In this document: positions 48,536-64,000 of the stretch, piece after piece
Position numbering within the stretch: position 1 is the stretch's first letter
Layout: every line of letters begins with the position of its first letter
DNA from: an uncultured Bordetella sp.
GTDB taxonomy: Bacteria > Pseudomonadota > Alphaproteobacteria > Micropepsales > Micropepsaceae
NCBI GenBank assembly: GCA_964446945.1
Contig: CAYUQO010000012.1
Location: forward strand, 20,194 to 84,193
Direction of reading: 5' to 3'
Length of the DNA stretch: 64,000 nt
The notes under the pieces: generated by a model
What the model was told of the DNA's origin: nothing
Seen by the model: only the letters and a program-made list of their open reading frames with translations
The model's database searches: none
Position numbers and translations under genes: made by a program

Positions 48536-49025
48536 TCAGCCGCCCGCATATCAATACCGCAATCCAGCACGACAGTGACGTTCCGGCGATGATTTTGGCG
48601 CGCAATGGCGCGTCATCTCCGGGTTCGAGCCGCTGCACCGCGGCATAGGCCGGTGTGGCATAGAACAGCGCCGCATTGACGCCCGCGATCATCACGAATG
48701 TCACCAGAAGCTGGAACGACGGATTGTAGAAATACTGTTCGGGAAAACCGAAAAAGAACACCACACCCGTTGTCAGATTGACCAGAAAGCCGGCGATGCC
48801 GAACGGGATCAGGCGATGCAGCTTGGCCGGTGCGATCTGCCGGCCCATGCCGAGCACGCGCAAGTCGAACAATCCGACCGTACCGAGCAACAGTGAAAAG
48901 CCGAGATAATGAATCGACTGAAGCGCCGGCCACAGCCACTGACCGTGCGCAGAAATGAAATGGTGCAACCCGCTGGCGCGTATCCACTGCTCCCACGGCT
49001 CCGGATTTAGTGGTTCGGTGAACAT
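48504..49025 (-). CDS. Polytopic membrane protein M1 (173 aa), embedded in the paralog array
   Basis: Four or five hydrophobic helices and a C-terminal CWIAVLICGRLITFF motif shared with the neighbouring M2. No family recognised by eye. Confidence 0.75.
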   Translation of the reverse strand: MFTEPLNPEPWEQWIRASGLHHFISAHGQWLWPALQSIHYLGFSLLLGTVGLFDLRVLGMGRQIAPAKLHRLIPFGIAGFLVNLTTGVVFFFGFPEQYFYNPSFQLLVTFVMIAGVNAALFYATPAYAAVQRLEPGDDAPLRAKIIAGTSLSCWIAVLICGRLITFFRPPVFH

Positions 49026-49028
49026 CGC

Positions 49029-49544
49029 CTAAAAACCACCCGGGACGCCGACCAGCAGCCATTTATAGGTGTAGGCGAGCAGCCGTCCGGCGATCAGCAC
49101 TCCCGCCCAGCAGGCGAGCGACAGAATTGCAAGAATTTGGGAATTCGCCACGATCGCGTGTCGCGCGGGAATCTGCCAGGGCGGCGCCCGCAAGACGCCG
49201 TCCCTGATCCGGACTGCGAGATAGACCCCGCACGCCACCAGCGACAGCTTCACGTAGAACAGGGGATTGGTGAACGCCTTGTAGGGATAGGCGTCGAGCA
49301 GCAACAATCCCGATGCGATATTCAGCGCCAGCGCCGCCCACAGCACCGGATAGAAGCGCTCGAACAGCGCCGCCGGAACGCCGCGCGCGACGCCCAGCAG
49401 CCGGAATGCCACCGCGGCGCCGGTGCCGGCGATAAAACCGGCGCCGAGAACATGTGCGGTCAGAATCAACGGGAAAGCGAATGAGCCGCCGCGAATGAAC
49501 TGACTCAGATCGGTATGCTCAAGCCAGCCGAAAAACCCCTCCAC
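49029..49544 (-). CDS. Polytopic membrane protein M2 (171 aa), distant paralog of M1
   Basis: GTG start with strong AAGGAGG 10 nt upstream. Motifs NPLFYVKL and CWAGVLIAGRLLAYT parallel M1 (NPSFQLLV / CWIAVLICGRLITFF). The stop is 3 nt before the M1 ATG. Confidence 0.75.
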   Translation of the reverse strand: MEGFFGWLEHTDLSQFIRGGSFAFPLILTAHVLGAGFIAGTGAAVAFRLLGVARGVPAALFERFYPVLWAALALNIASGLLLLDAYPYKAFTNPLFYVKLSLVACGVYLAVRIRDGVLRAPPWQIPARHAIVANSQILAILSLACWAGVLIAGRLLAYTYKWLLVGVPGGF

Positions 49545-49562: not shown

Positions 49563-49662
49563 AGCGCAATCCGCCGAAGTGTGAGCGGTTCAGCGGCCAT
49601 TTGCGCGACAATTAAAGAATCTAGAGCGTGATCCGATTCGATTTAATCGGATCATGCTCTAG
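49563..49662. repeat. ~100-bp intergenic repeat, copy A (conserved 5' block plus 18-bp-stem hairpin at 49621-49662)
   Basis: AGCGCAATCCGCCGAAGTGTGAGCGGTTC...TTGCGCGACAAT...CTAGAGCGTGATCCGATT-CGATTT-AATCGGATCATGCTCTAG. Second copy at 53175..53275. The hairpin contains the TAG stop of P8. Confidence 0.85.
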
Positions 49663-50492
49663 AAATCCCGTTTCTTCGCTTCAGGAATTGGCAAAAAGCC
49701 CTGGCCGAAGAAATCCGTGTTGTTTTCGGCGCAAACCGCTTCCTCCATGGTGTCGTGCGGCGCGCGCCGGAAAATCTGGCGCGCCGTCCATGGCATCTTG
49801 AATGCGCCGGGGTCGTCCACCGTGACCGTCAACTCCAGACGCTTGCCGGATGAGTCGGGATGAAATCGCTCGACCACATGCAGCGATTTCGTGTGCGGGG
49901 TCAGGTAATTGTCGACGTAGGTCTTGTCGTTCAAGCCGATAGTGTCGATGACGAGATCGCCATTCTCATAATGGCCGACCGATTCTCCGTACCATGAAGG
50001 TTTCGGATTCCGCGAATGCGGCACATTCATGAACACGTGGCGATACTGCGCATCACCTTCGTTCATGATCACGACTTCATTCGGCCGCTGCAGGAAATAA
50101 ACCGGGCGCAATCGCGAGAATACGTCATAACCGGGCACGCCCGCCGGCCAGCAAGTCTCGCGCGGAGAAAACGGCACATGGCCGGAAAGCGAATTGGCAT
50201 TCGCCTTTTGCAGGCGGTCTCGAACCCAGGGCTGGAGAATCGGATTGTTCAGATTGGCCACCCGCCAGGTCGCCTGTTTGCCGCTCTGGTTGCTGTAATA
50301 GGGATGGGCCGGATCCGAAACCACGGGACCCGGACCCGAAGTGGGCGGCTGGAAGTCGTCGCTCACCGGAAACCAGCCGGTATCGGCGTGGGACAGATCC
50401 GGGATTTTTGACGCTGAATCCGCATTCGCGCTCGGGCTGACGCAGGCGCATGACGCCGCGACGAAAAAAAATCCATACACTGACAATCGCAT
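49659..50492 (-). CDS. Exported protein, tandem paralog family member P8
   Basis: ATG 50492 overlaps the P9 stop (TAATG). MRLSVYGFFFVAASCACVSPSANA. Motifs KIPDLSHADTGW, TSGPGPV, TCWPAGVPG, KPSWYGESVGHYENGDLVIDTIGLN, VCAEN; ends PIPEAKKRDF. The upstream 193 codons of the 470-aa track ORF were rejected. Confidence 0.85.
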   Translation of the reverse strand: MRLSVYGFFFVAASCACVSPSANADSASKIPDLSHADTGWFPVSDDFQPPTSGPGPVVSDPAHPYYSNQSGKQATWRVANLNNPILQPWVRDRLQKANANSLSGHVPFSPRETCWPAGVPGYDVFSRLRPVYFLQRPNEVVIMNEGDAQYRHVFMNVPHSRNPKPSWYGESVGHYENGDLVIDTIGLNDKTYVDNYLTPHTKSLHVVERFHPDSSGKRLELTVTVDDPGAFKMPWTARQIFRRAPHDTMEEAVCAENNTDFFGQGFLPIPEAKKRDF

Positions 50493-51367
50493 TAAAAATC
50501 GGGCCTTTCTGCAATAGGTACCGTGGCTGTCGCGCCGGCGTAATAATCGGCGGTATTTTCGGGGCAGGCAATCTCTCCCCACTCCATAACTGACGACCGC
50601 CGGTACGCGACGGCGCTGCTCCAGCTGCGGGTGAAGGCTCCGGCATCGTCGACCGTGAACTCCACTTGCAGGCCCTTTCCACGGTAGTCGAAGTCGACAT
50701 AAACCGGTTCGGTCGTCGGCCGGCCATATTCGTGCTCGCTTCGCTCCTGCTCCTGCTTCGCCGCCTCGCCATCGATCAGCCGGTAGCGTTCGACCACGTG
50801 CAGCGCGGGCGTGTGCGGTGTCCCATACATGTCGATCAGCGAACCGGGCCGGGTCTTGATCCCGACCGTGTCGATGACCAGCGTGTCCCCTTCGTAATGG
50901 CCGACGGAGTCGCCATTCCATGACGGCACCACGTTTGCCGGATGGCTCGCATTCAACCGCACCTGCCGGAACTGGTGATCCTGAATATAAAGGATGGTGA
51001 TGCGATCCTTCTCCTGCAGCATCTGCATCTGCGCGATCCGCAAGACATAGGGCGGCGGCAGCGGCCGGCACTCATTCGAAAGATCGGGATAGGATTTGCC
51101 CGCGAGCGAAATCGCGCCGTGCTGTTTGACAATGTTCGCGGCCCAGGGTTGCAGAATGGGATTGTTGTAGTCGCCCACCAGCTTGAATGCGTCGCTGGTG
51201 CCGTTGGGCCGGCGTGCAAGATTCTTGAGCGGCCCTGGTCCGCTCCCGCCGAGATCATAGCCAAAGGTCGTCCGCGCCCAGATTCCGGAAAAATCCGGAG
51301 CAGCATCGGCTCCGGAGGGTGCAGCCAGGCACAGCGCCAATAATGAGACTGCCGCGCCTGCGCGCAT
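50492..51367 (-). CDS. Exported protein, tandem paralog family member P9 (PDFSG-W subfamily)
   Basis: 291 aa. Signal peptide then APDFSGIWARTTFGY, GSGPGPL, ECRPLPPPY, VPSWNGDSVGHYEGDTLVIDTVGI, TPHTPALHVVERY, ACPEN; ends VPIAERPDF. Confidence 0.85.
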   Translation of the reverse strand: MRAGAAVSLLALCLAAPSGADAAPDFSGIWARTTFGYDLGGSGPGPLKNLARRPNGTSDAFKLVGDYNNPILQPWAANIVKQHGAISLAGKSYPDLSNECRPLPPPYVLRIAQMQMLQEKDRITILYIQDHQFRQVRLNASHPANVVPSWNGDSVGHYEGDTLVIDTVGIKTRPGSLIDMYGTPHTPALHVVERYRLIDGEAAKQEQERSEHEYGRPTTEPVYVDFDYRGKGLQVEFTVDDAGAFTRSWSSAVAYRRSSVMEWGEIACPENTADYYAGATATVPIAERPDF

Positions 51368-51368
51368 G

Positions 51369-52232
51369 TCAGAATTCCGGCCGGTCGGCGCGGGGAATAT
51401 CGGTCAACCCGCCGCTGTAATATTCATAGGCGTTTTCGGCGCAGACATTTTCCACCCAGCCGCCGGCACGCCGCCAGGTGACGACCGCCGACCAGGGCTT
51501 TTTGAACACGTTCTTGTCTTCGACCGTGAACTCGATCTGGAGCCCCTTGCCTTTATACCCTTCATCGACCTCGGCAGCCTGTTCGGTCGCGACCGGCCCC
51601 GCTTCGCGGATATTTTTGTCCTGCGCCGCTTTTGCCACGGCGTAATCGACCGACCGGTAACGCTCGACGACGTGCAATGCGTCGGTGTAGGGCGAGCCAT
51701 ACATATCGAGCACGGGTTCGCGCGCAACTCTCGCGCCAATCGTGTCGACGACCAGCGTGTCACCTTCGTAATGCCCAACCGAATCTCCATACCACGAGGG
51801 TGTGACCTTCGCCGGATGCGTGGAATTCAGCCTGACGCGGCGGACCTGATGATCCTGCATGAAGACGAAAACGATTTCGTCCTTCTTCTGCAGCATCTGC
51901 ATCTCCTGGACGCGGAAGATGTAGGGGGAGACCATCGGCCAGCAATTCAGCGACGGGTTCGGATAGTCTCGGCCGCTGCGCAAAATTTCGCTGCGCTGCT
52001 TCACGATTGCCGCAGCCGACGGTGTCAGGTTCGGGCTTTCGAAATTGCCGCCGACATTCGATTGATTGTGATACCGGCCGATCGGTCCCTGGCCGCTTGC
52101 AGGCCGCTCATATCCGAAAGTCAGGCGCGCCCAGGCGCCGGAAAAGTCCGGCGCAGATGCCGGTTGCGCGGCCTCCGAAGGCAGTGCGGACACCGCCAGA
52201 GTGAGGCCGATGATCGTGCTTGCTACCCTCAT
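51369..52232 (-). CDS. Exported protein, tandem paralog family member P10 (PDFSG-W subfamily)
   Basis: ATG 52232 is preceded by GGGAGG. Motifs MRVASTIIGLTLAVSALPSEA, APDFSGAWARLTFGY, NCWPMVSPY, TPSWYGDSVGHYEGDTLVVDTIGA, VCAEN; ends IPRADRPEF. The stop is 1 nt before the P9 ATG. Confidence 0.85.
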   Translation of the reverse strand: MRVASTIIGLTLAVSALPSEAAQPASAPDFSGAWARLTFGYERPASGQGPIGRYHNQSNVGGNFESPNLTPSAAAIVKQRSEILRSGRDYPNPSLNCWPMVSPYIFRVQEMQMLQKKDEIVFVFMQDHQVRRVRLNSTHPAKVTPSWYGDSVGHYEGDTLVVDTIGARVAREPVLDMYGSPYTDALHVVERYRSVDYAVAKAAQDKNIREAGPVATEQAAEVDEGYKGKGLQIEFTVEDKNVFKKPWSAVVTWRRAGGWVENVCAENAYEYYSGGLTDIPRADRPEF

Positions 52233-52266
52233 CACAACGCCTCCCTGAAGGAATTGCGAAACCGTT

Positions 52267-53115
52267 TTAGAAGTCGGGTTTTCCCGCTGTGGGCATGGGA
52301 CGCACTTTATAATTGAACAGATTTTCGTTGTTCTCGGCGCACGGGGTTTCTTCGATCGGTCCGCGCGCAGTCCTTTTCCAGCGCTGCAAAGCGGTCCACG
52401 GCATGTTGAACGCGCCCGGATCTTCCACCCGTATGTTGTCAATCAGCGTCTTTCCCCCATCGGTCAGCCGATACCGCTCGATGACATGCATTTGGTCGGT
52501 ATGCGGGGTCCGGTAATTGTCGACAAAGGTGAGGTTGTTCAGGCCGATGGTGTCGACGACCAGGTCATCGCCCTCGTAGTGACCGACCGATTCCCCGGTC
52601 CATGATGGTTTCGGATGGGCGCTGTGCGGCACGTTCATATAGATGTGCCGTACCTGGAAATCGTTCTGATGGATCATCAGGATTTCCTTCGGCGTCTCGA
52701 TGAAGACCGTGATGTTGAATGGTGGTTCGAGCACATAGGCGGGCACGCCGGCGGGCCAGCAGCGTTCGCGCGGCACATAGGGAATCCCGCCGTTCAGCAC
52801 GTCCTGATTGGCCTTGCGCATCTGTTCTGCCGCCCACGGCTTCAAGATGGGGTTCGTCACGTCGGCAATGCGATAAGTCGGCTGATTGGGGCCGCCGGGA
52901 ACCGTCGGCACGAAGGGATGTGCCGGATCGTAAACGACCGGCCCCGGCCCGGTTTGCGGTGAAATGAAATCGTCCCCGTCGGCGTGATCGACCTGCCAGG
53001 CAGTGGCGACATCGGGAGCAAAGCGGAGCTGCTGTGGTGCCGCGCTGTCCGCAGCAGTAACGGCTGCTGCCGTGGCGCATCCGGCGATGGTGAAAACACT
53101 CACAATGCGGAGCAT
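52267..53115 (-). CDS. Exported protein (possible lipoprotein), tandem paralog family member P11
   Basis: ATG 53115 is preceded by GGAG. MLRIVSVFTIAGCATAAAV has a lipobox-like IAGC. Motifs TGPGPVV, RCWPAGVPA, KPSWTGESVGHYEGDDLVVDTIGLN, PCAEN; ends PMPTAGKPDF. Confidence 0.85.
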   Translation of the reverse strand: MLRIVSVFTIAGCATAAAVTAADSAAPQQLRFAPDVATAWQVDHADGDDFISPQTGPGPVVYDPAHPFVPTVPGGPNQPTYRIADVTNPILKPWAAEQMRKANQDVLNGGIPYVPRERCWPAGVPAYVLEPPFNITVFIETPKEILMIHQNDFQVRHIYMNVPHSAHPKPSWTGESVGHYEGDDLVVDTIGLNNLTFVDNYRTPHTDQMHVIERYRLTDGGKTLIDNIRVEDPGAFNMPWTALQRWKRTARGPIEETPCAENNENLFNYKVRPMPTAGKPDF

Positions 53116-53174
53116 TCCGTCACTCCATATCGCAGGCCGGCGGAACTTCCACGAATGTCGCGCCGCGCTGCCAG

Positions 53175-53275
53175 AGCGCAATCCGGCGAAGTGTGAGCGG
53201 TTCGCCGTTAGATTGCGCGACAATCAAAGGAAGCCAGCGCATGATCCGATTCCATTTAATCGGATCATGCGCTGG
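53175..53275. repeat. ~100-bp intergenic repeat, copy B (hairpin 53234-53275)
   Basis: AGCGCAATCCGGCGAAGTGTGAGCGGTTC...TTGCGCGACAAT...CCAGCGCATGATCCGATT-CCATTT-AATCGGATCATGCGCTGG. Same orientation as copy A. Lies between P12 and P11. Confidence 0.85.
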
Positions 53276-53346
53276 CGCTTCAAGCAAAAAAATCGGCCGC
53301 AGAACCGTGTGGTTCTGCAGCCGACCGGTAAGCGTTCTCCGGACTA

Positions 53347-54120
53347 TCAGAGGCCGGGAATGCGGCCCGCCGCGATTGCCGCGCGCGCCTGCGTAATGCC
53401 GTTGACTTTGGAAATGTCGCGGTGCTGTTCGCCGCAGACATAGTCTTCGAGACGGACATCGTTGCGCAGCGTGTAGACAAAACGCGTGCCGAAGTCGCGG
53501 GTGTAATAGGTCGGATCGTGGATCGTCACCACGTCCTCGAGCTGGGTCGGGCTGATTTTGCGGAACCGCTCGGTCGTGACCAGCATGTCGTCGTGCGGCA
53601 GGCCGGTTGCGTCGAGGAAGGTTTTCTCATTGAAGCCGGCGGTCTGCACGACCAGCGTGTCGCCTTCCCAATGGCCGACCGAATGGCCGTTGTAGAACGG
53701 ATACGGCACCAGCTCGTCATAGCTCGGCAGCGGCTTGTCCATCGCCACGACGCGGATCTGATGGTTCAGCTCGTGCACAATGGTGACCTGTCCGGGCGGA
53801 GCCTGGATGATTTCGAACGGATAGGGGGATGCCATGGTGCGCGGAATACCGTCGGGAACGCAGAATTTGCGCGCCGCATCCGTGATCGAGCCATCCTTCA
53901 GGCCAGCCTGATTCATCGCATAGGCCTTCTGGCCTTCCGCATTCAGCGGCGGCGCGCCACCGCCCTGCAGAACCAGTTTCGGATGATATTCCGTGGCCCA
54001 GTAAGTTCCGGAAATGTCGGGCGTCGCGCCGGCGCCCAACGCCGACCCGGCCATCATCGACAAGGCCAGAACTGCTCCCAGAGCCGTACCGCCGCGCGCA
54101 ACAACCCGAATATCGATCAT
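53347..54120 (-). CDS. Exported protein, divergent tandem paralog family member P12
   Basis: ATG 54120 is preceded by GGGAGG. Motifs TPDISGTYW, FCVPDGIPR, FYNGHSVGHWEGDTLVVQTAGFN, LPHDDMLVTTERF, VCGEQ. Lacks the ...DF tail (ends GRIPGL). Confidence 0.8.
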   Translation of the reverse strand: MIDIRVVARGGTALGAVLALSMMAGSALGAGATPDISGTYWATEYHPKLVLQGGGAPPLNAEGQKAYAMNQAGLKDGSITDAARKFCVPDGIPRTMASPYPFEIIQAPPGQVTIVHELNHQIRVVAMDKPLPSYDELVPYPFYNGHSVGHWEGDTLVVQTAGFNEKTFLDATGLPHDDMLVTTERFRKISPTQLEDVVTIHDPTYYTRDFGTRFVYTLRNDVRLEDYVCGEQHRDISKVNGITQARAAIAAGRIPGL

Positions 54121-54261
54121 GCAACCCTCCCAGAGTTTCATTGGCCCACCCGGCGAAACCCGCTCATCGGTTGCTTCGCCCGCATGGAGACATTTCTAAC
54201 GTTTAACATTGTACCGATTGAAAAAAAAGGCGGCAGGTTCCCGCTTTTCTTCTTTCGCGGG

Positions 54262-54693
54262 CTAGTGCTGCCCGTTGACAGGTTCGGCCTTGTATGCCGT
54301 TTCGACAACAGCTTGACTATTCCACCAGCCGCCGCCGAGCGCCTGAAACAGCGCCGCCGTGTCGGCGAAACGGCTGGCCTGCGCCTGAATGCGGGTGATC
54401 AGCGCCTGCTCATACGCCTGTTGCGCCGTCAGCAAGCCGAGATACTGGATTTGACCGAGTTCCAATTGCCGTCGCGCAATATTCAGGCTGCGCAATGCCG
54501 CTGCTTCCGTGGCCGAGGCGGCATTCAGCAATTCGGCGTCCGACTGCAACGCGTACAAGGTGTCGGCAACATTCTGCAATGCGGTCAGCACGGTGTTGCG
54601 GTAATTCGCGGCCGATTGGTCATAGGCGGCTTCGGCGGCGCGCGTCAGATGCTTCACCCGGCCGCCTACGACGACCGTGGCTCGTTGATGCAT
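54262..54693 (-). pseudogene. 3' remnant of an outer-membrane efflux factor (NodT/OprM family) gene
   Basis: Only the last ~130 residues are present (AAYDQSAANYRNTVLTALQNVADTLYALQ...LFQALGGGWW). The ~330 N-terminal codons are missing; the divergent response-regulator gene starts 96 nt away. Confidence 0.7.
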
Positions 54694-54788
54694 TTTGTAT
54701 ACTTACGACAGTTCGACATGACAGGGATTGACCTTGCTCATTCGCGCAGAAAATTCTTTCCTCTGCCAGTCGCGAATACGGATGCCAT

Positions 54789-55463
54789 ATGAGACTGCTG
54801 CTTGTCGAAGACAATGAAACGCTTGCCGGCCTGCTCGAAAAGGGGCTGACCGCGGCGGGGTTTTCCGTCGATACGGTCAAGACGGTTGCGGAAGCACTCG
54901 ATGGACTGGCGGCGAAACGCTTCTCCGCGATTATTCTCGATCTTGGTTTGCCGGATGGCGACGGTTACGCGGTATTGCATTCTTTGCGCAGCAAAGGCGA
55001 TTCGACTCCGGTGCTGATACTCACAGCGCGCAGCGCCGTGGACGATAAGGTAAAAGGCTTCCAGCGCGGTGCCGATGATTATCTCGGCAAGCCTTTTGCG
55101 CTGGAAGAACTTATCGCGAGGTTGCAGGCCCTGTTGCGCCGCCCTGGAGTACTGCTCGGCGCCGCGCTCAGACTCGGACGTTTGACGTTCGACACCACAG
55201 CGCGCGAAATCACTGTCGGCGGGCAGCTGGAATTGGTGCCCCCACGCGAAGCCGCGGTGCTCGAAGTGTTGCTGCGCAGAAGCGGCCGCGTCGTGCCAAA
55301 ACAGGTCATTGAGGATCAGCTCTATGGCCTGTCCGAGGAAGTGAGCTCGAACGCGATCGAGGTCTATGTTCACCGGCTTCGCAAACAACTGTCGGACGCG
55401 AATGCCGGGGTCGAAATTCACACCATCAGGGGCGTCGGTTATCTCATTCGGGAAGCAGCATGA
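54789..55463 (+). CDS. OmpR/PhoB-family response regulator
   Basis: 224 aa: receiver (MRLLLVEDN...ILDLGLPDGDG) plus a winged-helix output domain (VYVHRLRKQL...IHTIRGVGY). Confidence 0.9.
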   Translation: MRLLLVEDNETLAGLLEKGLTAAGFSVDTVKTVAEALDGLAAKRFSAIILDLGLPDGDGYAVLHSLRSKGDSTPVLILTARSAVDDKVKGFQRGADDYLGKPFALEELIARLQALLRRPGVLLGAALRLGRLTFDTTAREITVGGQLELVPPREAAVLEVLLRRSGRVVPKQVIEDQLYGLSEEVSSNAIEVYVHRLRKQLSDANAGVEIHTIRGVGYLIREAA

Positions 55464-56839
55464 GATTGCGGTTCAAATCCATTCTGCAAAGAATCATTTC
55501 GCTGCATGTGCTGGCGCTGGCCGGCGTGTTCGGCGCGATTACATTTGCGGTGTGGTTTGTTCTCGGCGCAACCGCCAACAATTTTGAAGAACGCCTGTTG
55601 CTCGACCACGCGACGACTGTCGCCCAACATCTCCGGCTGGATGGAGATCGATGGACGGTCGATCTGCCGCCGGATCTGGCGGCGCTCTATGGCCGCGGCT
55701 ATGGCGGGTATGCGCTGACCATCATCGACGAAAACGGACGTGTCGTTTCTTCCTCACTGCCGCGCCGGGAGGCGCTGTTCACGCCGGATACGCCGCTGCA
55801 GGCTCCAGCATATTTCCAGCAGAGGCGCGGCAAGGCTGCGTTCTACGGGATTGATTTCCCGGTTCGTAAAGACAATCACAGCGCCACCATTGAAGTGGCC
55901 CAGGATCTCGCAAACGCCGATGTGATTGTCGATGATGTCGTTGCCGGTTTTGTAAGCCGGCTGGCCTGGGTGGTGCTGCCGATGTTTGCGCTGCTTCTCG
56001 CGCTCGATGTCCTGATCGTGCGCAGGGCGCTGAAGCCGATCACCACAGCCTCGCAACGTGCGCGCAATATTCACCCGGGGACCATCAGATTGCGGCTTCC
56101 TGAATCCGGGCTTCCCGATGAGGTCCTGCCGCTGGTGGTCGCGGTCAACCAGGCGCTCGATCGTCTGGAACGCGGTTTTCAGATGCAGCGCGACTTGACC
56201 GCCGATGCCGCCCACGAACTGCGAACGCCACTCGCGATCCTGATGACCATGATCGATGTTTCGGCAGACCAGAAGCTGGCGGCCGAATTGCGGCCCCAAA
56301 TCCTCGGCATGAGCCGGATCGTCGGGCAACTGCTCGAGCTCGCCGAACTCGAATCGTCCTCCATCGGTGAGGAGGACGCGGCCGATCTGCGTGCGGTGTG
56401 TTCCGATGCCGTCAGCCTCATGGCGCCCGTCGCTCTGGCGCAGGGAAAAACGATCGAGCTCAATGCGCCGCCTGCGCCAGTCTGGGTGCAGGGAAATGCG
56501 GAATTACTGGTCCGCGCCGTGCGCAATCTGGTCGAGAATGCGATCCGGTATACTGCGGCAGCAACGGCGGTCGAAGTGGACGTCCTCGCGTCGGGTGCCG
56601 TGACTGTGAAAGACCGTGGTCCGGGCGTTCCTCCGACCGAACGCGAACTCATCTTCCGGCGCTTCTGGCGGCGCGACCGGCGCGGTGGCCCAAATGCCGG
56701 ACTCGGTCTTTCGATCGTGCAGCGCGCGATCCAGATTCATGGAGGCAATGTCGGCGTGGGCGAGCGCGAGGGTGGCGGTGCGGTATTTTCAATTGCCCTG
56801 CCGGTCCGCCAAAAAACCGTAAGCCATTTAGCTATTTGA
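55460..56839 (+). CDS. Sensor histidine kinase (two TM helices, HAMP, HisKA, HATPase_c)
   Basis: 459 aa with H-box AAHELRTPL, N-box NLVENAIRYT and G-boxes DRGPGV / GLGLSIV. 4-nt overlap with the regulator gene. Confidence 0.9.
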   Translation: MRLRFKSILQRIISLHVLALAGVFGAITFAVWFVLGATANNFEERLLLDHATTVAQHLRLDGDRWTVDLPPDLAALYGRGYGGYALTIIDENGRVVSSSLPRREALFTPDTPLQAPAYFQQRRGKAAFYGIDFPVRKDNHSATIEVAQDLANADVIVDDVVAGFVSRLAWVVLPMFALLLALDVLIVRRALKPITTASQRARNIHPGTIRLRLPESGLPDEVLPLVVAVNQALDRLERGFQMQRDLTADAAHELRTPLAILMTMIDVSADQKLAAELRPQILGMSRIVGQLLELAELESSSIGEEDAADLRAVCSDAVSLMAPVALAQGKTIELNAPPAPVWVQGNAELLVRAVRNLVENAIRYTAAATAVEVDVLASGAVTVKDRGPGVPPTERELIFRRFWRRDRRGGPNAGLGLSIVQRAIQIHGGNVGVGEREGGGAVFSIALPVRQKTVSHLAI

Positions 56840-56945
56840 TAGATTCTATAATCATTAACGCTGTCGACGGCGCCATCAGAGATGTAAGCCTGTTGTCAGC
56901 CATTTCGCATTTTCTGATTTATTTTTCATTTTTCATTCATAACCG
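56840..56945 (+). promoter_or_regulatory. AT-rich intergenic segment with reiterated ATTTT(T)C motifs upstream of the TonB-dependent receptor (candidate promoter/operator)
   Basis: GCATTTTCTGATTTATTTTTCATTTTTCATTCAT at 56907-56940, in an otherwise ~60% GC region. A TTGACC hexamer at 56946. No experimental support. Confidence 0.3.
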
Positions 56946-57114
56946 TTGACCATTCGCAAATTTCGGCTAACGCTGAAGTTGTGGAGTCACCGATGCGATG
57001 AATGGTGTCTCCACGGGGGTAAGCATTCGTTTCAGGCCGTAGCTCTGTTCTCGCCGTCAGCGGGAGCAGGTTCACACGCAGATGCTTTGGCGCATCCGCG
57101 AGGGCAGGGGGACC

Positions 57115-60100
57115 ATGAATCCGAAGACATCGAGACTTGCATCTTTGTTGGGATCTGCATCGCTGTTGGCGATGTCCAGCGCCGGTGGCGCGTCGGCGCA
57201 ACAGGTTGCGCAGGATCAGATGGCCCAGGCCAATCCGAATGAAGTGCAAGAGCAGGTGCTGATCACCGGGTCACTCATTCGTGGCACCGTCGCGGTCGGC
57301 GTACCGGTCACCAATCTTGGGCCGCAGGATTATGCGCAGACCGGCGCGCTGACCACAGCCGACCTGTTCAGAACCACACCATTTGCGAATGTGAGCCCAG
57401 GCCCGGTCGGCACAAATGCCAATAACAATATCGGTAAGGAGACCCGGGTTAATATCCGCGGCCTCGATCCCAATGACGGTACGCGTGCACTGTTGATGGT
57501 TGATGGCTATCGCTTCCCGGGCCAGGGCGAAGCGCTCTGTGCTATCGATCCTTCGATTATTCCCGCACTCGCGCTGGACCGCATCGATATCCTGGTGGAT
57601 GGCGCATCGGCGACTTATGGCTCCGATGCGGTTACCGGCGTGGTCAACATCATCCTCAAGCGCGGCTACGATGGTGCAATCACGCAATTACGAACCACCC
57701 AGGCCGATGGAAAATCGGAATATCAGGCCTCCCAACTCTGGGGCCGAACCTGGGAAGGCGGCGATATCACCCTGACCTATGAATGGGACGACGATTCGCC
57801 GCTGAAGGCTAGTGCGCGTTCGCGTTTGTCCTATGACTTCACCCCATGGGGCCTGGACAACCGCACGCCGATCCGGTCCTCCATTCCCGGTACCATTTCA
57901 GTCGGCAATCCGGTCCAGACGCCCGAGACGTCACTGAACCCGTCGGCCGGCACCGGTGGCGCCGGCGCCTTTGGGCGCGCCTGCAACAACTGCTATGCCA
58001 TTCCGGCAGGCGCCGGTTCGAACTACACGGCGGCTCCCAATCCGCTGGTTTGGTCAAGCTTTGCGGTCGCCGCCAACGGCGGCGCCGGCAACGACCTCAA
58101 CGGTACGCGCAACGAATTCAATCCCTACTCGATTGCGTGGTACGACGCGGCGCAGCAGCGCAATGCCGTCGTTGGAACATTCGACCAACGCCTGTTCAGC
58201 TGGGTGTCAGTCTTTGCCGAAGGTTTTTATGACAATCGCCGGGCGCAATATCTGAATCCCGCGACTCTCTCGCCGACGTCGGGCAATGACCTTCTGGTCC
58301 AGGTCCCGACATCCAATCCGTATTATCCGATCGGCGCCCCCAACAATCTCAAAGTCAATTACAACATTTCACTCGAGGCTCCTCCTCTCACATCGGCTTT
58401 TGAGATCGCAGATCGTTATCTTGGCGGGTTTAATCTCGATCTGCCGTTCGGCTGGGAAGGAAAGATCTTTTACGGGGAGAGCTTCAACGACACGGGCTCC
58501 GCGGTCCACGCCGTTAATCCCAATATGGTTTCCGCGGCTCTCGGCTGGACCATGCCGGCGAGCGCCGGCGTCGGCACATTTCCAGGCATCGGGACATGGA
58601 CCAGGCCTTCAACCGTTCCCTATCTCGATCTTTTCTGCGATCCGCACGCGTTTCAGTGCAATTCGCCCGCGACAATCGGTTATATCCAGGGCGTGCGCGC
58701 CTATCTTTCGGAAGACTGGGTGAACGAGAAAGGCGCCACGTTTGATGGCCCGCTGTTTGCGCTGCCGGCAGGCGATGTGAAGCTGGCGGTAGGCACCGTG
58801 TACATATCCTCACAGTTCGCTTTCCATGTCTATGACAGCACCGCCTCGCCGACGCCTTTGGTGCCCAGCCTTCTCGATGCCGCAAGCAAGCAATGGTTTG
58901 CCGTCTTCTCGCAATTGAACGTGCCGGTGGTCAGTGACGCCAATTCTTTCCCGCTGGTGCGCCGCTTCGACCTGGAAGGATCATGGCGTCATGACCAGTA
59001 CCATCAGCTCGGCGGTTTCAACGGCGGCACCAGCAATCCGAAGGTCGCGTTCAACTGGACGCTGACCGAGGATTATGGCCTGACCGTGCGTGGCGCGTGG
59101 GGCACCTCATTCCGCGCGCCAGGATTCGCCGAGGAATCGCCATTGGCGAAGACTGCGATCGCTGCCTGGAACTCCTCACTGTTCGCACAGAATTCCCAGA
59201 TCACTGTCAACTGCAATCCGGCGGCGGATTCAATGGCCGGACGGCTGTTGAATCCCGGCGCAGGATTCACCGGTTGGAACGGCCAGACGAACAATGGCGG
59301 AACACCGGGCGTTAGTTGCGGCACCAAGGCGGCGCCAATCGGAATGGCGCTTCTCGGCGCCGCCGGGGTGGCCAATGCAGCCGGAATGCGGCTTTACACC
59401 AATACCGCTGGCCAGCACCTGCATCCCGAAACCGCAACGAACTACGCATTGACGGCGGAATTCGCGCCAACCGCTTTCCTGCGCGGACTCGACATACAGG
59501 CCACCTGGTATCAAATTAAGATTGACGGCGCGCTCAGAGGCTTTGCCAATCCCAACACAACTTCGGTCAACGATCCCGGCCTCGGCTTTTCCTACATCGT
59601 GCCGACCGATATCGCCAAAGCCGGTGTTGATGTTGCAGGTTGCAGCAACAACAACACGCCGACGACCTGCCCCGAATTCGAGAACATGGTGGCCGGGCTG
59701 CTTGCCAGTCCGCGTAATCCCGTGTCGCCGCAGGTCCTCACCACAGTGGTGTGGATTAATGACGGCGCAACGTTCAACGCCGGTTACATCAAAGCCCAGG
59801 GTATCGATTTCACCGCCAGCTATGATCTCGACCTCGGCGATCTCGGCGCGTGGAACACGGGTATTGTCGGTACCTATTATCTGCACCAGAATAGCGCGAA
59901 CTTTCTCAGCGCGACGGATCCCGAAGCCGGCACGGTACAGGATCTGTTTCACACCACGCTTGGCACGCTGAACGGAATTCCGCAGGTCGGGGTCGAATCG
60001 CTCCCGCGGCTGCGTTATCGCGGGCGCCTGGGTTGGAGCGATGGCCCATTGTCGGTGACGGGCTTCGTCAATTACACCGGTCACTTTTACAACACGCAGA

Positions 60101-60426
60101 ATGCCCCGCCGAATGTCAATTTCGCCTGCTTGACCGCCGGCGGGACCATCGGCGGCGGAAGTTTCCCCTGCGCCATCAGCAATTATTCGGATATCGAGCC
60201 GTCCTATTACACATTCGACCTGTCATTCGGCTACGACACTGGCGATCAGCCGGCGAATATCTATCTGAAGCATGTGCAGCTGCAGCTCGTGGTCCAGAAT
60301 ATTCTCAACCGACTTCCGGCCTTCGAATATCGCATTGGTACAGGAGCCGGAAATCCTGCCACCTATGATATTTCGCAGAGCGCGCAGGGTCGAACCTTTG
60401 GGATTGTCCTGACCAAGACGTGGTGA
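57115..60426 (+). CDS. TonB-dependent receptor (unusually large, ~1103 aa)
   Basis: ATG 57115 gives a signal peptide and TonB box/plug (EQVLITGSLIRG..., VNIRGLD, DRIDILVDGASATYGSDAVTGVVNII). Long beta-barrel ending ...FGIVLTKTW. Confidence 0.9.
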   Translation: MNPKTSRLASLLGSASLLAMSSAGGASAQQVAQDQMAQANPNEVQEQVLITGSLIRGTVAVGVPVTNLGPQDYAQTGALTTADLFRTTPFANVSPGPVGTNANNNIGKETRVNIRGLDPNDGTRALLMVDGYRFPGQGEALCAIDPSIIPALALDRIDILVDGASATYGSDAVTGVVNIILKRGYDGAITQLRTTQADGKSEYQASQLWGRTWEGGDITLTYEWDDDSPLKASARSRLSYDFTPWGLDNRTPIRSSIPGTISVGNPVQTPETSLNPSAGTGGAGAFGRACNNCYAIPAGAGSNYTAAPNPLVWSSFAVAANGGAGNDLNGTRNEFNPYSIAWYDAAQQRNAVVGTFDQRLFSWVSVFAEGFYDNRRAQYLNPATLSPTSGNDLLVQVPTSNPYYPIGAPNNLKVNYNISLEAPPLTSAFEIADRYLGGFNLDLPFGWEGKIFYGESFNDTGSAVHAVNPNMVSAALGWTMPASAGVGTFPGIGTWTRPSTVPYLDLFCDPHAFQCNSPATIGYIQGVRAYLSEDWVNEKGATFDGPLFALPAGDVKLAVGTVYISSQFAFHVYDSTASPTPLVPSLLDAASKQWFAVFSQLNVPVVSDANSFPLVRRFDLEGSWRHDQYHQLGGFNGGTSNPKVAFNWTLTEDYGLTVRGAWGTSFRAPGFAEESPLAKTAIAAWNSSLFAQNSQITVNCNPAADSMAGRLLNPGAGFTGWNGQTNNGGTPGVSCGTKAAPIGMALLGAAGVANAAGMRLYTNTAGQHLHPETATNYALTAEFAPTAFLRGLDIQATWYQIKIDGALRGFANPNTTSVNDPGLGFSYIVPTDIAKAGVDVAGCSNNNTPTTCPEFENMVAGLLASPRNPVSPQVLTTVVWINDGATFNAGYIKAQGIDFTASYDLDLGDLGAWNTGIVGTYYLHQNSANFLSATDPEAGTVQDLFHTTLGTLNGIPQVGVESLPRLRYRGRLGWSDGPLSVTGFVNYTGHFYNTQNAPPNVNFACLTAGGTIGGGSFPCAISNYSDIEPSYYTFDLSFGYDTGDQPANIYLKHVQLQLVVQNILNRLPAFEYRIGTGAGNPATYDISQSAQGRTFGIVLTKTW

Positions 60427-60483
60427 GGTACGGAGCGGCGGTTTGCCAGTTCGGTGAACATCGCGCTAGACTTCCGCGCGAGA

Positions 60484-61800
60484 ATGAATCAATCACCGCT
60501 GCTGCAGGCCCTCGAGTATTACAAAATCGGCCGGTTTGAGCCTGCTGCCGAATTGCTGCACGCCTGTCTTCAGAGTTCGCCGGCCGATGGTCCGGCCAAT
60601 CATCTGCTGGGGGTGATCTATTACCGGCAAGGCAGGCTTGCGGGGGCCCGCGATCACCTGGCGCGCGCCTGCGCCATGCCGGGCGCCACGCCGGAAATGT
60701 ACAACAACTATGGCGCTGCGCTGGACGGCCTGGGTGATTTGCGAGGCGCGGTCGCCGCGTATCGCAGTGCGCTCGCGCTCGATCCCAATTACGCAGACGC
60801 ACTCAGCAATCTTGGCGTGATTTATCTCAAGCAGGGCGAAACGCAGAGGGCGATCCAAACGCTGCGCCGCGCGATTGCGCTGAAGCCCGAACTGACAGAC
60901 GCGCAGCTGAATCTGAGAAATGCCTACCGGGAGGTCGTGCCTCCCTGGCATTTCGCGATGGTCAATGACCGGCCGCGCAACGCAGCGTATCGCAACGCAA
61001 TCGCGCGGATGGTTCCGGGAAAGCGCGTACTGGATATCGGAACGGGCGCCGGACTGCTCGCGATGATGGCGGCGCGGGCTGGCGCTGCGAGCGTCACCAC
61101 CTGCGAAGCGAATGCCGTAATCGCCGAGCGGGCAAAGGACATCGTCGCGTCCAACGGATTTGCCGATCGTGTATCTGTCATCGCAAAACATTCCACAGCA
61201 CTTCGGGTTGGGCAGGACCTGGATCAAAGAGCTGAGATCCTCATCACTGAAACTTTCGCCAGCGATTTACTGAGTGAGGGTATTGTTCCCGCGGTCGAGC
61301 ACGCGCATCGCGAATTGCTGATCCCGGATGCAACAATCATTCCGCGTCACGCTGCGGCCGTCGGATATCTGGCCGGCGGCCCGGAGATCGAGACCATGCT
61401 ATTCGCCGGCGCCAGCGAAGGATTCGACATTTCCGGGTTCAACGATTTCGCACCACCCGTGTTTCCCGCGACCCTGAACAATGTGCCGCCCGACATCCTT
61501 TCCGATGATTTCGAACTGCTCAGCCTTGATTTGCGGTCGCACCTGTTTGCAATGGAACAGCGCATGATTACGATTCCGGTGGTTAAATCGGGCACTGCAG
61601 CTGCCGTGGTGCAGTGGATTCGTCTCGATCTCGACGGCCTTCACCAATACGAGAACCGGCCCACGCCGGATCCCCGGGCCGAGACGCACTGGACCCAGAT
61701 TCTTTACCGGTTTCCGCAGCCATTTCCGGTCAGCGCTGGAACAGTGGTGAATCTTGCGGTCGGTCACAACCGCCGCCAGTTGTCTGTCGTCCTCGCTTGA
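60484..61800 (+). CDS. TPR-repeat protein fused to a protein-arginine-methyltransferase (PRMT)-like catalytic domain
   Basis: N-terminal TPRs (~150 aa). PRMT-like motifs follow: PPWHFAMVNDRPRNAAYRNAI, motif I VLDIGTGAGLLAMMAARAGA, post-I VTTCEAN, double-E loop ITETFASDLLSEG (E-x8-E), LIPDATIIPRHA, and THW loop AETHWTQILY. ATG 60484 was chosen; the track ORF starts at GTG 60454. Confidence 0.8.
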   Translation: MNQSPLLQALEYYKIGRFEPAAELLHACLQSSPADGPANHLLGVIYYRQGRLAGARDHLARACAMPGATPEMYNNYGAALDGLGDLRGAVAAYRSALALDPNYADALSNLGVIYLKQGETQRAIQTLRRAIALKPELTDAQLNLRNAYREVVPPWHFAMVNDRPRNAAYRNAIARMVPGKRVLDIGTGAGLLAMMAARAGAASVTTCEANAVIAERAKDIVASNGFADRVSVIAKHSTALRVGQDLDQRAEILITETFASDLLSEGIVPAVEHAHRELLIPDATIIPRHAAAVGYLAGGPEIETMLFAGASEGFDISGFNDFAPPVFPATLNNVPPDILSDDFELLSLDLRSHLFAMEQRMITIPVVKSGTAAAVVQWIRLDLDGLHQYENRPTPDPRAETHWTQILYRFPQPFPVSAGTVVNLAVGHNRRQLSVVLA

Positions 61801-61884
61801 GCGCCGGCCTATTGCGCAGCTCCGTCGAGATCGCGACGAATCCGCCAGACTTAATCCAGACCGGGCGGAAAGGCGCTTCCATCA

Positions 61885-63630
61885 TTGCCCAATAGCCGGA
61901 CTCGCCGTAATGGCCAGAGCGGAGACGAAACCGCGACAGCCCAGGCGGCACTGCGGGCCGGCCGATTGGCGGAAGCCGAAGTACACCTGTTGCGCATATT
62001 GAGTCGAAATCGGAGCAACGATTTTGCCCTGGCGCTGGCCGGCGAACTGCGGGTTGCACAGCAACGGCTTCGGGATGCGGCATTGCTTTACGCGCAGGCG
62101 GTGACGCTGCGCCCGGATGTTGTTTCATATAAGGAGCGTTTCGCCGAACTCGCCAGACGGATGCATGCCGCCGAATGGGACCCATTGCTCGCAGATGCTT
62201 TGACAGCCTGCCTTCGAACTCCGGAAATCGATTGCACGCGCCTCTCCGGATTTTGGTCCAGCCTGGTACTGCAACAGCCGGCAATCAAATCGTTCGTGAG
62301 CAATCCGGATCTGGTTGCACCCGCCCTGTCCACTCCGCTGCTGACTGAGGGGCTGAAGCGGCTTTTGGTATATGACGCGCCCACGGAAGACTTCATCTGC
62401 CATTTGCGCTGCCGGTTGTTATTCCATCGACAGCAAAGCGTATCGCGCGACTGGGTGGCGCTTGCGACCGCGCTCGCACGTTATGCGTTCAATTCCGATT
62501 ACATTCTGGACCTTTCCGAAGACGAGCAATCCGCCGTGGCGCAATTGCGCGGACGCGTCGAGGCCTCCCGAGAACCAGCGGCGATTGCTGTTCTTGCCTG
62601 CTACTGTCCGCTGTGGGCGCTTCCGAATTCCGGGGACATTCTGGCCCAACATGGTCGATCGGGCCCATTGAAAGACCTGGTAAAGCTGCACATTGCCGAT
62701 GCCCTGGAGTTTCGCGCGGCAGCGCAGGAAGTCGCAACCCTGACCACTATCGGCGATGGAGTTTCGGCCGCGGTGCGCCGTCAATACGAGGATTTTCCTT
62801 ATCCGCGCTGGCAGCCGGTTGCGCGGCAGAAGCTCGTCAGGGATTGGGAAAACGAGGAATGCAACCGTTCGACCGAACACCTGTTGCGTGGCAAGGCGGC
62901 GCGCATTCTGGTGGCCGGATGCGGTACCGGGAAAGAGGCGGTGATGCTGGCCACGATTTTTCCGGATGCGCAGATCATTGCAGTGGACCTCAGCCGCACC
63001 AGTCTGGGTTATGCGGCCGTGATGGCGAAGCGATGTGGGATCAGCAATGTCTCATTCCATCACGCCGACATCACGCAGCTCGGTTCGCTGAATGAGAAAT
63101 TCGATTACATTTCGGCCGTGGGCGTGCTGCATCACCTGGAGGACCCCGCTGCCGGATGGAAAATCTGTACAGAGCTGCTCAAGCCCGGGGGGCTTATGCG
63201 TATTGGCCTTTACAGCCAGGCCGGACGTTGGGCGGTGGTCGCGGCGCGCGAAGTGATCGCGCGCGGCGGATATGGTGCGGACGCCGAAGGAATGCGTAGA
63301 TTCCGCCGGGGCAGCCCGGCGCTCCTGCCCGAACCGGTGCTCGATGATTTGAGGCGGTTCACGGATTACTACCAGCTCAGCATGTATCGCGATCTTCTGT
63401 TCCATGTTCAGGAACGTCGCTTCACGATTCCGCAGATTGCAGAGTTGCTGCACAATTTTCGCTTGACGTTTGCCGGGTTCTACCTGCCGGCCCATGTTCT
63501 GGCGCGCTACAGCGCCGCATTCCCCGAAGACCGCGCCCGTACCGATCTGCAGAACTGGCATCGCTTCGAACAACAGAATCCGGAAACATTCCGGAACATG
63601 TATATTTTCTGGTGCCGTAAGACCGGATGA
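61885..63630 (+). CDS. Class I SAM-dependent methyltransferase with a long helical/TPR-like N-terminal region
   Basis: 581 aa with motif I ILVAGCGTGKEAVMLA, AVDLSRTSL and FDYISAVGVLHHLEDP. Start uncertain: TTG 61885, with no in-frame ATG for ~95 codons. Confidence 0.75.
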   Translation: MPNSRTRRNGQSGDETATAQAALRAGRLAEAEVHLLRILSRNRSNDFALALAGELRVAQQRLRDAALLYAQAVTLRPDVVSYKERFAELARRMHAAEWDPLLADALTACLRTPEIDCTRLSGFWSSLVLQQPAIKSFVSNPDLVAPALSTPLLTEGLKRLLVYDAPTEDFICHLRCRLLFHRQQSVSRDWVALATALARYAFNSDYILDLSEDEQSAVAQLRGRVEASREPAAIAVLACYCPLWALPNSGDILAQHGRSGPLKDLVKLHIADALEFRAAAQEVATLTTIGDGVSAAVRRQYEDFPYPRWQPVARQKLVRDWENEECNRSTEHLLRGKAARILVAGCGTGKEAVMLATIFPDAQIIAVDLSRTSLGYAAVMAKRCGISNVSFHHADITQLGSLNEKFDYISAVGVLHHLEDPAAGWKICTELLKPGGLMRIGLYSQAGRWAVVAAREVIARGGYGADAEGMRRFRRGSPALLPEPVLDDLRRFTDYYQLSMYRDLLFHVQERRFTIPQIAELLHNFRLTFAGFYLPAHVLARYSAAFPEDRARTDLQNWHRFEQQNPETFRNMYIFWCRKTG

Positions 63631-63645
63631 CCAAAGCTCAGCTCA

Positions 63646-63683
63646 GCAAACAGGCCGCGGGAGGGATCCCGCGGCCTGTTTGC
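63646..63683. terminator. Perfect 17-bp-stem hairpin between convergent genes (terminator-like)
   Basis: GCAAACAGGCCGCGGGA-GGGA-TCCCGCGGCCTGTTTGC followed by TTT on the plus strand. Lies between the stop at 63630 (+) and the stop at 63695 (-). Confidence 0.7.
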
Positions 63684-63694
63684 TTTCGCAGCTG

Positions 63695-64000
63695 CTACCA
63701 GGTCTTGGTGACAATCAGGTCAAAGGTTCGTCCCTGGTCGCTCTTCAGGATGTCGAAGGCCGCGGGGTTTCCGCCACCGGTGCTGATACGGTACTCGAAC
63801 GGCGGCAGCCGGTTTGTGATGTCTTCGATGACAAGCTGGATTCCGATATTCTTCAGATAGTTATTGGCCGGAAGGTCGCCGGTATTGTAACCCAGCGAAA
63901 GATCGAACGTGTAATAGGACGGTTCGATGTTGGTGTAATTGCTGATCGCGCAGGGGAATGTCCCGCCGCCTGTCGTGCCCCCGGCCGCCGTGCACTGGAA
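63695..64000 (-). CDS. TonB-dependent receptor, C-terminal 101 codons (5' part beyond the window); paralog of 57115..60426
   Basis: Reverse translation reads FQCTAAGGTTGGGTFPCAISNYTNIEPSYYTFDLSLGYNTGDLPANNYLKNIGIQLVIEDITNRLPPFEYRISTGGGNPAAFDILKSDQGRTFDLIVTKTW*. About two-thirds of positions are identical to the C-terminus of the other receptor. Confidence 0.85.
   Translation of the reverse strand, partial: FQCTAAGGTTGGGTFPCAISNYTNIEPSYYTFDLSLGYNTGDLPANNYLKNIGIQLVIEDITNRLPPFEYRISTGGGNPAAFDILKSDQGRTFDLIVTKTW

Follow-up and report, generated by a model that had tools for sequence, protein, structure and literature searches.

We find that a gene on a 64,000-nucleotide stretch of contig CAYUQO010000012.1 (the window), from an uncultured bacterium of the Micropepsaceae lineage, encodes a protein that is best described, from its sequence, as a bacterial, single-module relative of the protein arginine methyltransferases (PRMTs) PRMT7 and PRMT9 fused to an array of tetratricopeptide repeats (TPRs). 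The gene is real and conserved, the enzyme it is predicted to encode has the PRMT fold and an intact active site, and we consider it likely that this TPR-PRMT is a cytoplasmic, S-adenosylmethionine (SAM)-dependent protein arginine N-methyltransferase of the PRMT7/PRMT9 lineage. An earlier, sequence-only reading of the window had proposed an enzyme of PRMT fold, fused to TPRs and intact in its catalytic loops, and this proposal holds, both in structural comparison with Foldseek and in residue-level HMMER alignments; each of the motifs it listed in the gene was found in its place when we re-derived the coordinates. The features of the gene are given below, with residues numbered along the 438-residue product.

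60484–61800, plus strand: TPR-PRMT coding sequence, 438 amino acids, stop codon included (open reading frame (ORF) list, homologue starts, public gene calls)
60493–60936, plus strand: TPR array, residues 4–151, four TPR motifs and a capping helix (nine helices, H4-14 to H138-151; Pfam, AlphaFold2 model, PDB matches)
60946–61002, plus strand: N-terminal PRMT helices alphaX/alphaY, WHFAMVNDRPRNAAYRNAI, residues 155–173 (alignments, conservation)
61012–61317, plus strand: Rossmann-fold SAM-binding domain, residues 177–278 (alignments, AlphaFold2 model, conservation)
61027–61086, plus strand: motif I, VLDIGTGAGLL, within VLDIGTGAGLLAMMAARAGA, residues 182–201
61093–61113, plus strand: post-I motif VTTCEAN (E208), residues 204–210
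61243–61281, plus strand: double-E loop ITETFASDLLSEG (ITE256TFASDLLSE265G), residues 254–266, E-x8-E
residues 279–290: LIPDATIIPRHA
61318–61794, plus strand: PRMT beta-barrel domain, residues 279–437 (Pfam PRMT_C, AlphaFold2 model, Foldseek)
61678–61707, plus strand: THW-type loop AETHWTQILY (H402, W403), residues 399–408

The similarity of the catalytic region to PRMTs, as measured by alignment, is far above chance. A phmmer search of PDB sequences with the C-terminal 295 residues returns mouse PRMT7 at E=2.8e-40, with 279 residues aligned and the barrel and HW loop included, together with PRMT9 (E=7.6e-39 for Bos taurus and 6.8e-37 for human), Trypanosoma brucei PRMT7 (TbPRMT7; E=4e-18), PRMT2, 6, 1 and 3 (E from 1e-17 to 1e-13) and CARM1 (1e-10). 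The Pfam family PRMT_C (PF22528), which represents the oligomerisation/barrel subdomain, matches at 32.1 bits against a gathering cut-off of 27, and the generic Rossmann families of Pfam match weakly. In the HMMER alignments the double-E glutamates E256 and E265 fall on the glutamates of PRMT7 ITELFDTELIGEG and PRMT9 VTETVDAGLFGEG, and ETH402W403TQ stands opposite DHWMQ of PRMT7 and TCWEQ of PRMT9. An AlphaFold2 model built from 31 homologues has a predicted local distance difference test score (pLDDT) of 92.1 and a predicted TM-score (pTM) of 0.77, and lays out nine TPR helices (4–151), followed by the two N-terminal helices of the PRMT module, the Rossmann domain and a beta-barrel whose arm, a helix-loop-helix, lies at about residues 300–322. 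Of the features of the PRMT superfamily, the protein carries Rossmann motif I with the post-I acidic residue, which in PRMTs binds the ribose of SAM, the double-E loop, a THW-type loop and a barrel with an arm. The best Foldseek match of the model in the PDB is full-length Bos taurus PRMT9 (8rbk, E=3.7e-28, TM-score 0.71), in an alignment of 453 columns that includes the TPRs, and the runners-up are PRMT7 of mouse, trypanosome and worm, human PRMT9 and PRMT3/6/2/1. The sequence-only reading had named a closer affinity to small-molecule or rRNA methyltransferases as the result that would speak against it; since all 50 of the best matches to this high-confidence model are PRMTs and none is a small-molecule or rRNA methyltransferase, no such affinity is found.

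We examined conservation in a close set of 31 homologues (51–83% identical) and in a diverged set of 142 representatives with at most 50% mutual identity, for which counts are given out of 143. Invariant in the close set are W155, H156, F157, M159, D162, R165, N166 and the stretch G186-T-G-x-G-L-L, as well as C207-E208, T255-E256-x-F258, E265, H273 and H402-W403. The diverged set keeps R165 and E208 in 143/143 members, W155 and E256 in 141/143, E265 in 139/143 and the motif I glycines G186/G188/G190 in 142–143/143. Within the HW loop W403 is retained in 141/143 diverged members, but H402 in only 70/143, and the Thr of THW is found in just 2 of the 31 close homologues; the His of this loop, variable in the bacterial family, varies likewise in eukaryotic PRMT5 and PRMT9. 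Because E256, E265 and W403 are near-invariant while the Thr and His are not, this pattern indicates that the catalytic glutamates and the HW-loop Trp are under selection and that the literal THW is incidental. Both loops that the sequence-only reading called intact are therefore present, with the constraint resting on the Glu pair and the Trp and not on the remainder of THW. Taken together, these alignments show conservation across a large bacterial family of every residue equivalent to one that binds SAM or clamps the guanidinium in solved PRMTs.

The sequence-only reading had aligned the catalytic domain with type I PRMTs, and we find that the best matches are instead PRMT7 (type III) and PRMT9 (type II), at about twice the bit score of type I enzymes: in the phmmer search PRMT7 and PRMT9 score 131–142 bits (142 and 137 at best) versus 40–68 for type I, with PRMT1/2/3/6 at 58–68. 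Identity over the Rossmann region, computed on PDB-verified fragments (the PRMT1 core being 100% identical to 8z2z), is 47% to mouse PRMT7, 39% to PRMT9, 34% to TbPRMT7 and 31% to PRMT1, and the overall match to type I PRMT1 is 24.6% identity over 301 residues (E=2e-19). A type I enzyme would be nearest to PRMT1/2/3/4/6/8 and would have YFxxY and, at the site of TbPRMT7 F71, an Ile, a small aliphatic residue that permits asymmetric dimethylation; here we find PPWHF and W155, which aligns with F71 of TbPRMT7 and with a Trp of PRMT9 where PRMT1 has Ile. The helix motif WHFAMVNDRPRNAAY is close to WHFIMLNDTKRNTIY of PRMT9. In TbPRMT7, which is a homodimer of single modules, the guanidinium is bound by E172 and E181, and the mutants F71I or E181D gain dimethylation (PMC8226133). 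Since an aromatic residue at the F71 site and a Glu at the second position of the double-E loop are both kept, the product is more likely to be monomethylarginine (MMA) or symmetric dimethylarginine (SDMA) than asymmetric dimethylarginine (ADMA), made in what would be a narrow, PRMT7/9-like pocket. In a neighbour-joining tree of 133 Rossmann columns, whose eukaryotic sequences are partial ones taken from PDB alignments and whose outgroup is a single type I enzyme, mouse PRMT7, TbPRMT7 and PRMT9 branch close to the bacterial family or within it, at bootstrap values below 50.

The N-terminal domain gives a hint of the kind of substrate. Pfam TPR_1/2/8/11/16 cover residues ~15–160, this region comes closest, among PDB sequences, to consensus TPR proteins and to the TPR superhelix of O-GlcNAc transferase (OGT; E=1e-49), and the match to PRMT9 continues collinearly across the boundary between the TPR and Rossmann domains (query 87–292 versus chain 58–265). 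Successive A-helices carry an asparagine every ~34 residues, at N39, N75, N109 and N143, conserved in 27/30, 30/31, 31/31 and 31/31 homologues, respectively, and in the alignment they stand opposite the asparagines of SNLG/CNLA in the TPRs of OGT. The asparagine ladder of OGT binds extended substrate peptides. Conservation of an OGT-type ladder suggests, by analogy, that the TPR groove of the TPR-PRMT may hold an unfolded stretch of polypeptide. No hydrophobic segment is visible in the sequence at the N-terminus, nor is there a sign of export.

The start of the gene is likely the ATG at 60484, as close homologues open with MNQ and public gene calls agree; the ORF list contains a second possible in-frame start, a GTG at 60454. 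Public gene calls give the identical 438-residue product, in the same gene order, on four metagenomic contigs that are independent of one another. The GC content of the gene is 0.60, the same as that of the remaining window, which is ordinary alphaproteobacterial chromosome, and no further PRMT copy or GT41 glycosyltransferase gene was found elsewhere in the window.

The family to which this protein belongs is large. A word-indexed search finds at least 966 related proteins among the 8000 candidates scored, the closest named relatives among those scored being proteins of Micropepsaceae metagenome-assembled genomes (MAGs) that NCBI labels 'tetratricopeptide repeat protein', and an exhaustive search with the catalytic domain alone gives 682 clusters (50% identity) at E<=1e-30 and 3567 at E<=1e-10. 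At least 505 GTDB species-representative genomes encode a relative; these are mostly Pseudomonadota, and the taxa include Alpha- and Betaproteobacteria, Desulfobulbia, Magnetococcales and one acidobacterium, with at least two cultured carriers, Magnetovibrio blakemorei MV-1 and Caenimonas soli S4. The sequence-only reading had called characterised PRMT-type enzymes rare in bacteria; among genomes the family is not a rare one, only uncharacterised. Diverged members have an N-terminal extension with a median length of 180 residues and a maximum of 540, and genomes of the Micropepsaceae type carry three to five or more paralogues. Some members (P0131, P0135 and P0174) contain two tandem PRMT modules, a layout like the PRMT7/9 pseudo-dimer, and in P0131 and P0135 it is the C-terminal module that carries the WHFPM/GTGTGLL motifs, the N-terminal one appearing degenerate; another member, P0143, has an additional N-terminal domain ahead of the TPRs. 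The family is already recognised by automated annotation, IMG naming many members 'type II protein arginine methyltransferase'.

The genes around the TPR-PRMT gene were compared with those of 80 related loci, in which ORFs were called and clustered. The flanking genes of the window that enter this comparison are as follows.

54789–55463, plus strand: OmpR-type response regulator (Pfam Response_reg/Trans_reg_C)
55460–56839, plus strand: sensor histidine kinase (Pfam HisKA/HATPase_c/HAMP/2CSK_N)
57082–60426, plus strand: TonB-dependent receptor, 1114 amino acids, 57 nt upstream of the TPR-PRMT gene (Pfam Plug only)
61885–63630, plus strand: second methyltransferase, 581 amino acids, class I SAM-dependent, 84 nt after the TPR-PRMT gene (Pfam Methyltransf_25/31/11/12)
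63695–64000, minus strand: 3' end of a second, convergent TonB-dependent receptor that runs off the window (tblastn, gene call)

The gene does lie directly after a giant TonB-dependent receptor on the same strand, as first described, and the receptor may really start at the ATG at 57115. A promoter/terminator scan found no terminator-like site in the 57-nt gap, and is uninformative since it returned fewer sites than in shuffles. Receptors of this ~1100-residue family stand beside a PRMT homologue in 12 loci (W, L001, L002, L003, L005–L008, L020, L023, L031 and L032), upstream of it in some and downstream in others, and these loci represent three PRMT subclades with PRMT identity down to 50% and receptor identity down to 39%. 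Both gene orders and three subclades are hard to explain by inherited synteny alone, which suggests, on this comparative evidence, that the receptor family is functionally linked to the PRMT in the Micropepsaceae-type clade. A hidden Markov model of the linked family, run to look for other TonB-dependent receptor families near the paralogues, found that family alone, in the same 12 loci. As to whether the gene is always next to such receptors, a check proposed with the sequence-only reading, the association recurs in the Micropepsaceae-type clade and gives way to heterogeneous flanks elsewhere. The regulator/kinase pair upstream of the receptor recurs beside PRMT homologues in L001, L002 and L009 (ORF clusters c13 and c20). 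No riboswitch or other RNA element hinting at a receptor ligand came near threshold in 54000–64000.

The second receptor of the window is 69% identical to the last 101 residues of the first (tblastn) and extends to at least 828 residues in the call on contig L081, so that the two methyltransferase genes are bracketed by two paralogous receptors of the linked family. In the closest related genome (80% identity; L001/L023, contig DASUHP010000076.1), two TPR-PRMT paralogues lie tail to tail, each facing its own receptor of the linked family, an arrangement that suggests duplication of a receptor-PRMT unit. TPR-fused GT41 glycosyltransferases (OGT/SPINDLY-like; Pfam Glyco_transf_41, E=6e-83) flank PRMT homologues in 15 loci from several orders, distant taxa included, and two 'eukaryote-like' families of TPR-fused protein-modifying enzymes are in this sense co-located; these loci include L001 (10679–12889, minus strand), L005, L008, L036, L037 (three in tandem), L040, L050, L051, L059 and L067.

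Other flanks were read by eye. In Methylotenera they comprise an MsbA-like ABC transporter, CstA, RadC and CoaBC, in Desulfobulbaceae multihaem cytochromes, and in one paralogue clade lpxB. In MAGs of Desulfobulbaceae and relatives (L036, L040, L050 and L059) the PRMT homologue lies inside a conserved block of CxxCH-rich multihaem cytochromes and SurA/PpiC-like, NHL-repeat, large beta-barrel-like and TPR/radical-SAM-like proteins. Within the window, 49659–54141 (minus strand) holds four tandem paralogues of ~260–320 residues, probably secreted, with the motif SW(Y/T)G(D/E)SVGH(Y/W)EGDxLVVDT; no Pfam or PDB match was found for them, and this family adjoins PRMT paralogues in nine loci (the window, L017, L018, L020, L025, L026, L032, L033 and L035). 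A 143-residue ORF at 54262–54693 (minus strand), ending ...QALGGGWW, resembles by eye only the C-terminal end of NodT/OprM-type outer-membrane efflux proteins and may be a gene remnant. At 48504–49544 (minus strand) lie two adjoining, paralogous membrane proteins of ~170 residues, one of which matches DUF6644 at 24 bits, below the cut-off.

The second methyltransferase was described in the sequence-only reading as another TPR/SAM enzyme; its class I SAM domain is clear, but its N-terminal 338 residues match no Pfam family and no TPR was detected in them, although some homologues carry weak TPR matches. Its best solved relative is the protein-lysine methyltransferase Rv2067c of M. tuberculosis (8hkr, E=2e-25 over ~220 residues), with weaker matches to Rickettsia PKMT1 (E=9e-12) and likewise to PKMT2. 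The substrate trough of Rv2067c resembles those of PKMT1/2, which multiply methylate the outer-membrane protein OmpB (PMC10739865). We considered this gene as a conserved partner of the PRMT and rejected it, tblastn finding it beside a PRMT homologue in this genome only and in 0/80 related loci; at L001, the 80%-identical locus, its place is taken by a convergent PRMT paralogue, a TPR-GT41 gene and another receptor. A search with the C-terminal 326 residues shows a family of more than 1200 members with varied neighbourhoods, and in four neighbourhoods of homologues the surroundings are heterogeneous, with a TonB-dependent receptor in one of the four, ~5 kb away. That an arginine and a lysine methyltransferase might act as a pair on the flanking outer-membrane receptors stays speculative, because homologues of the second enzyme have no consistent linkage to receptors.

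In the mechanism that we propose, the TPR groove would bind an extended substrate polypeptide and present an arginine to the active site, where E256 and E265 would clamp the guanidinium as a methyl group passes from SAM to a terminal guanidino nitrogen. PRMTs act as homodimers or pseudo-dimers, and by analogy with single-module TbPRMT7 the enzyme would probably be a homodimer formed through the arm. As the gene is linked in this lineage to one receptor family and a two-component system, the target probably lies within the receptor-based uptake module or the two-component regulation module. Several points weigh against this picture. The full-text literature, with subscription journals outside its coverage, yielded no biochemical data on the bacterial TPR-PRMT family. 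Outside the Micropepsaceae-type clade the flanks, read by eye, are heterogeneous and lineage-specific, which precludes inferring a universal partner or substrate, and no universal neighbour pointing to a substrate was found in the 80 related loci. MMA and SDMA cannot be told apart from the sequence, in that PRMT9 (SDMA) and TbPRMT7 (MMA) share the aromatic and Glu features. Finally, according to Aravind and colleagues, relatives of PRMTs in bacteria occur in operons for peptides and secondary metabolites (PMC3417536), which makes a non-protein substrate conceivable.

We nevertheless regard it as unlikely that the guanidino group methylated by the enzyme is that of free arginine, of a small guanidino metabolite or of a peptide natural product, whether ribosomal or non-ribosomal, and not one in a folded cellular protein. 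The TonB-dependent receptor next to the gene could serve to take up such a compound, or to take it back, but neither the surrounding 10 kb nor the related loci contain genes for non-ribosomal peptide synthetases, polyketide synthases, precursors of ribosomally synthesised and post-translationally modified peptides, dioxygenases or amine oxidases, the context in other taxa consists of housekeeping genes, and the OGT-like TPR array with its asparagine ladder points to an extended polypeptide ligand. Some way less probable is a PrmA-like protein methyltransferase acting on another nucleophile (lysine, glutamine or an N-terminus). In its favour are weak Pfam matches to PrmA (28.7 bits) and MTS, and IMG names such as 'Ribosomal protein L11 methyltransferase (PrmA)' or 'RsmD' for some members; these Pfam matches, however, span only the generic Rossmann motif (residues 188–265), the NCBIfam PrmA equivalogs score 29–31 bits against cut-offs of 183–269, and only PRMTs have the beta-barrel, double-E and HW features, the top fold matches being PRMTs throughout.

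A catalytically inactive scaffold that binds partners through its TPRs has precedents in the C-terminal modules of PRMT7 and PRMT9 and in the TbPRMT1 prozyme (PMC8399567, PMC8226133), and Micropepsaceae genomes do carry several paralogues. It is very improbable here, as in the pseudo-PRMTs known so far the double-E, THW or SAM motifs have been lost; all of these are intact in this protein and near-invariant in ~140 diverged members. A Rossmann identity of 47% to animal PRMT7 is more than one usually sees in a bacterial protein and might raise the suspicion of recent transfer from a eukaryote or of eukaryotic contamination, which we find scarcely credible and the least probable of these alternatives: the gene sits between bacterial genes at the base composition of the window, the same arrangement recurs on four independent contigs, and the family extends through at least 505 bacterial species genomes and 682 clusters (50% identity) at E<=1e-30, with bacterial divergence down to 38% identity. 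A protein arginine methyltransferase of PRMT7/PRMT9 type remains the reading that we prefer.

Reviews of PRMTs present arginine methylation as a modification of eukaryotic proteins (PMC11871472, PMC13639276). Proteomics has reported methyl-arginine in bacterial proteins, including TamA and the response regulator MtrA, and the modification has been called understudied (bioRxiv 10.1101/2023.06.29.546327; PMC8466066); no writer enzyme is named in either of these two reports. The evolutionary origin and duplication of PRMT7 are said to warrant 'further investigation' (PMC8399567). The family described here is not new to databases, IMG giving many members a KEGG-style name, and comparative genomics had drawn attention to relatives of PRMTs in bacteria in 2011–2012. 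As a large, untested bacterial family, however, it could on the strength of its sequences include unknown writers of bacterial protein arginine methylation: its members are concrete, clonable candidates in which the catalytic residues of PRMT7/9 are complete and the TPR domain in front is like that of PRMT9, they bear on the origin of PRMT7 and PRMT9, and, having a single module, they make a simple system in which to study the delivery of substrates from a TPR array to the active site of a PRMT. A more far-reaching proposal, which we put forward as doubtful, is that the receptor-linked TPR-PRMT writes arginine methylation on the outer-membrane uptake module, its substrate being either the receptor precursor, as OmpB is for PKMT1/2, or the OmpR-type regulator, in the manner of MtrA, and that the family, with the co-located TPR-GT41 enzymes, represents the prokaryotic stock that gave rise to eukaryotic PRMT7 and PRMT9. 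Were the uptake-module part of this true, it would provide the first enzyme-substrate pair for bacterial arginine methylation.

Among known systems, type I PRMTs (PRMT1, 3, 6, 8 and CARM1) share the fold and the SAM-binding, double-E and THW motifs and can be aligned end to end with the catalytic region, but differ in having YFxxY in place of PPWHF and, in PRMT1, an Ile in place of the Trp. The bacterial PRMT-related peptide methylases of Aravind and colleagues belong, likewise as bacterial proteins, to the PRMT radiation and are known from comparative genomics only, yet lie in secondary-metabolite operons or inside peptide synthetases (PMC3417536), whereas the present family is TPR-fused and found in receptor/two-component or housekeeping contexts. 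OGT and SPINDLY (GT41) have the most similar TPR array, with Asn at the equivalent position of the repeat, joined in OGT to a GT-B glycosyltransferase catalytic domain and here to a PRMT methyltransferase.

PRMT7 (type III; mouse 4c4a, T. brucei 4m36/4m38/5eku) gives the top sequence score and, like the TPR-PRMT, has Glu and not Asp at the second position of the double-E loop. Feng and colleagues reportedly traced the RXR specificity of human PRMT7, in 2014, to the acidic double-E-loop residues D147 and E149. The counterparts of these sites are A259 and D261 in the TPR-PRMT, so that only one is acidic here, and D261 varies within the family. TbPRMT7 is alike in being a single module, and forms a homodimer via the arm (PMC8226133). 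PRMT7 differs in lacking a TPR domain, and the animal enzyme has two modules and a zinc finger (PMC8399567).

A close parallel in domain layout is PRMT9 (type II; 8rbk, 6pdm, 7rbq), which consists of three TPRs and two tandem methyltransferase modules that form a pseudo-dimer (PMC10984984). The bacterial protein has instead four TPRs with a cap and one module, ending at residue 438; it has THW where PRMT9 has TCW, its Rossmann identity to PRMT9 is just 39%, and the substrate of PRMT9, SF3B2, is eukaryotic. In both proteins, nonetheless, the TPR repeats run straight and collinearly into the PRMT module, the helix motif WHFxMxNDxxRNxxY is almost identical, a Trp occupies the site of TbPRMT7 F71, and the double-E loop reads TETxxxxLxxEG.

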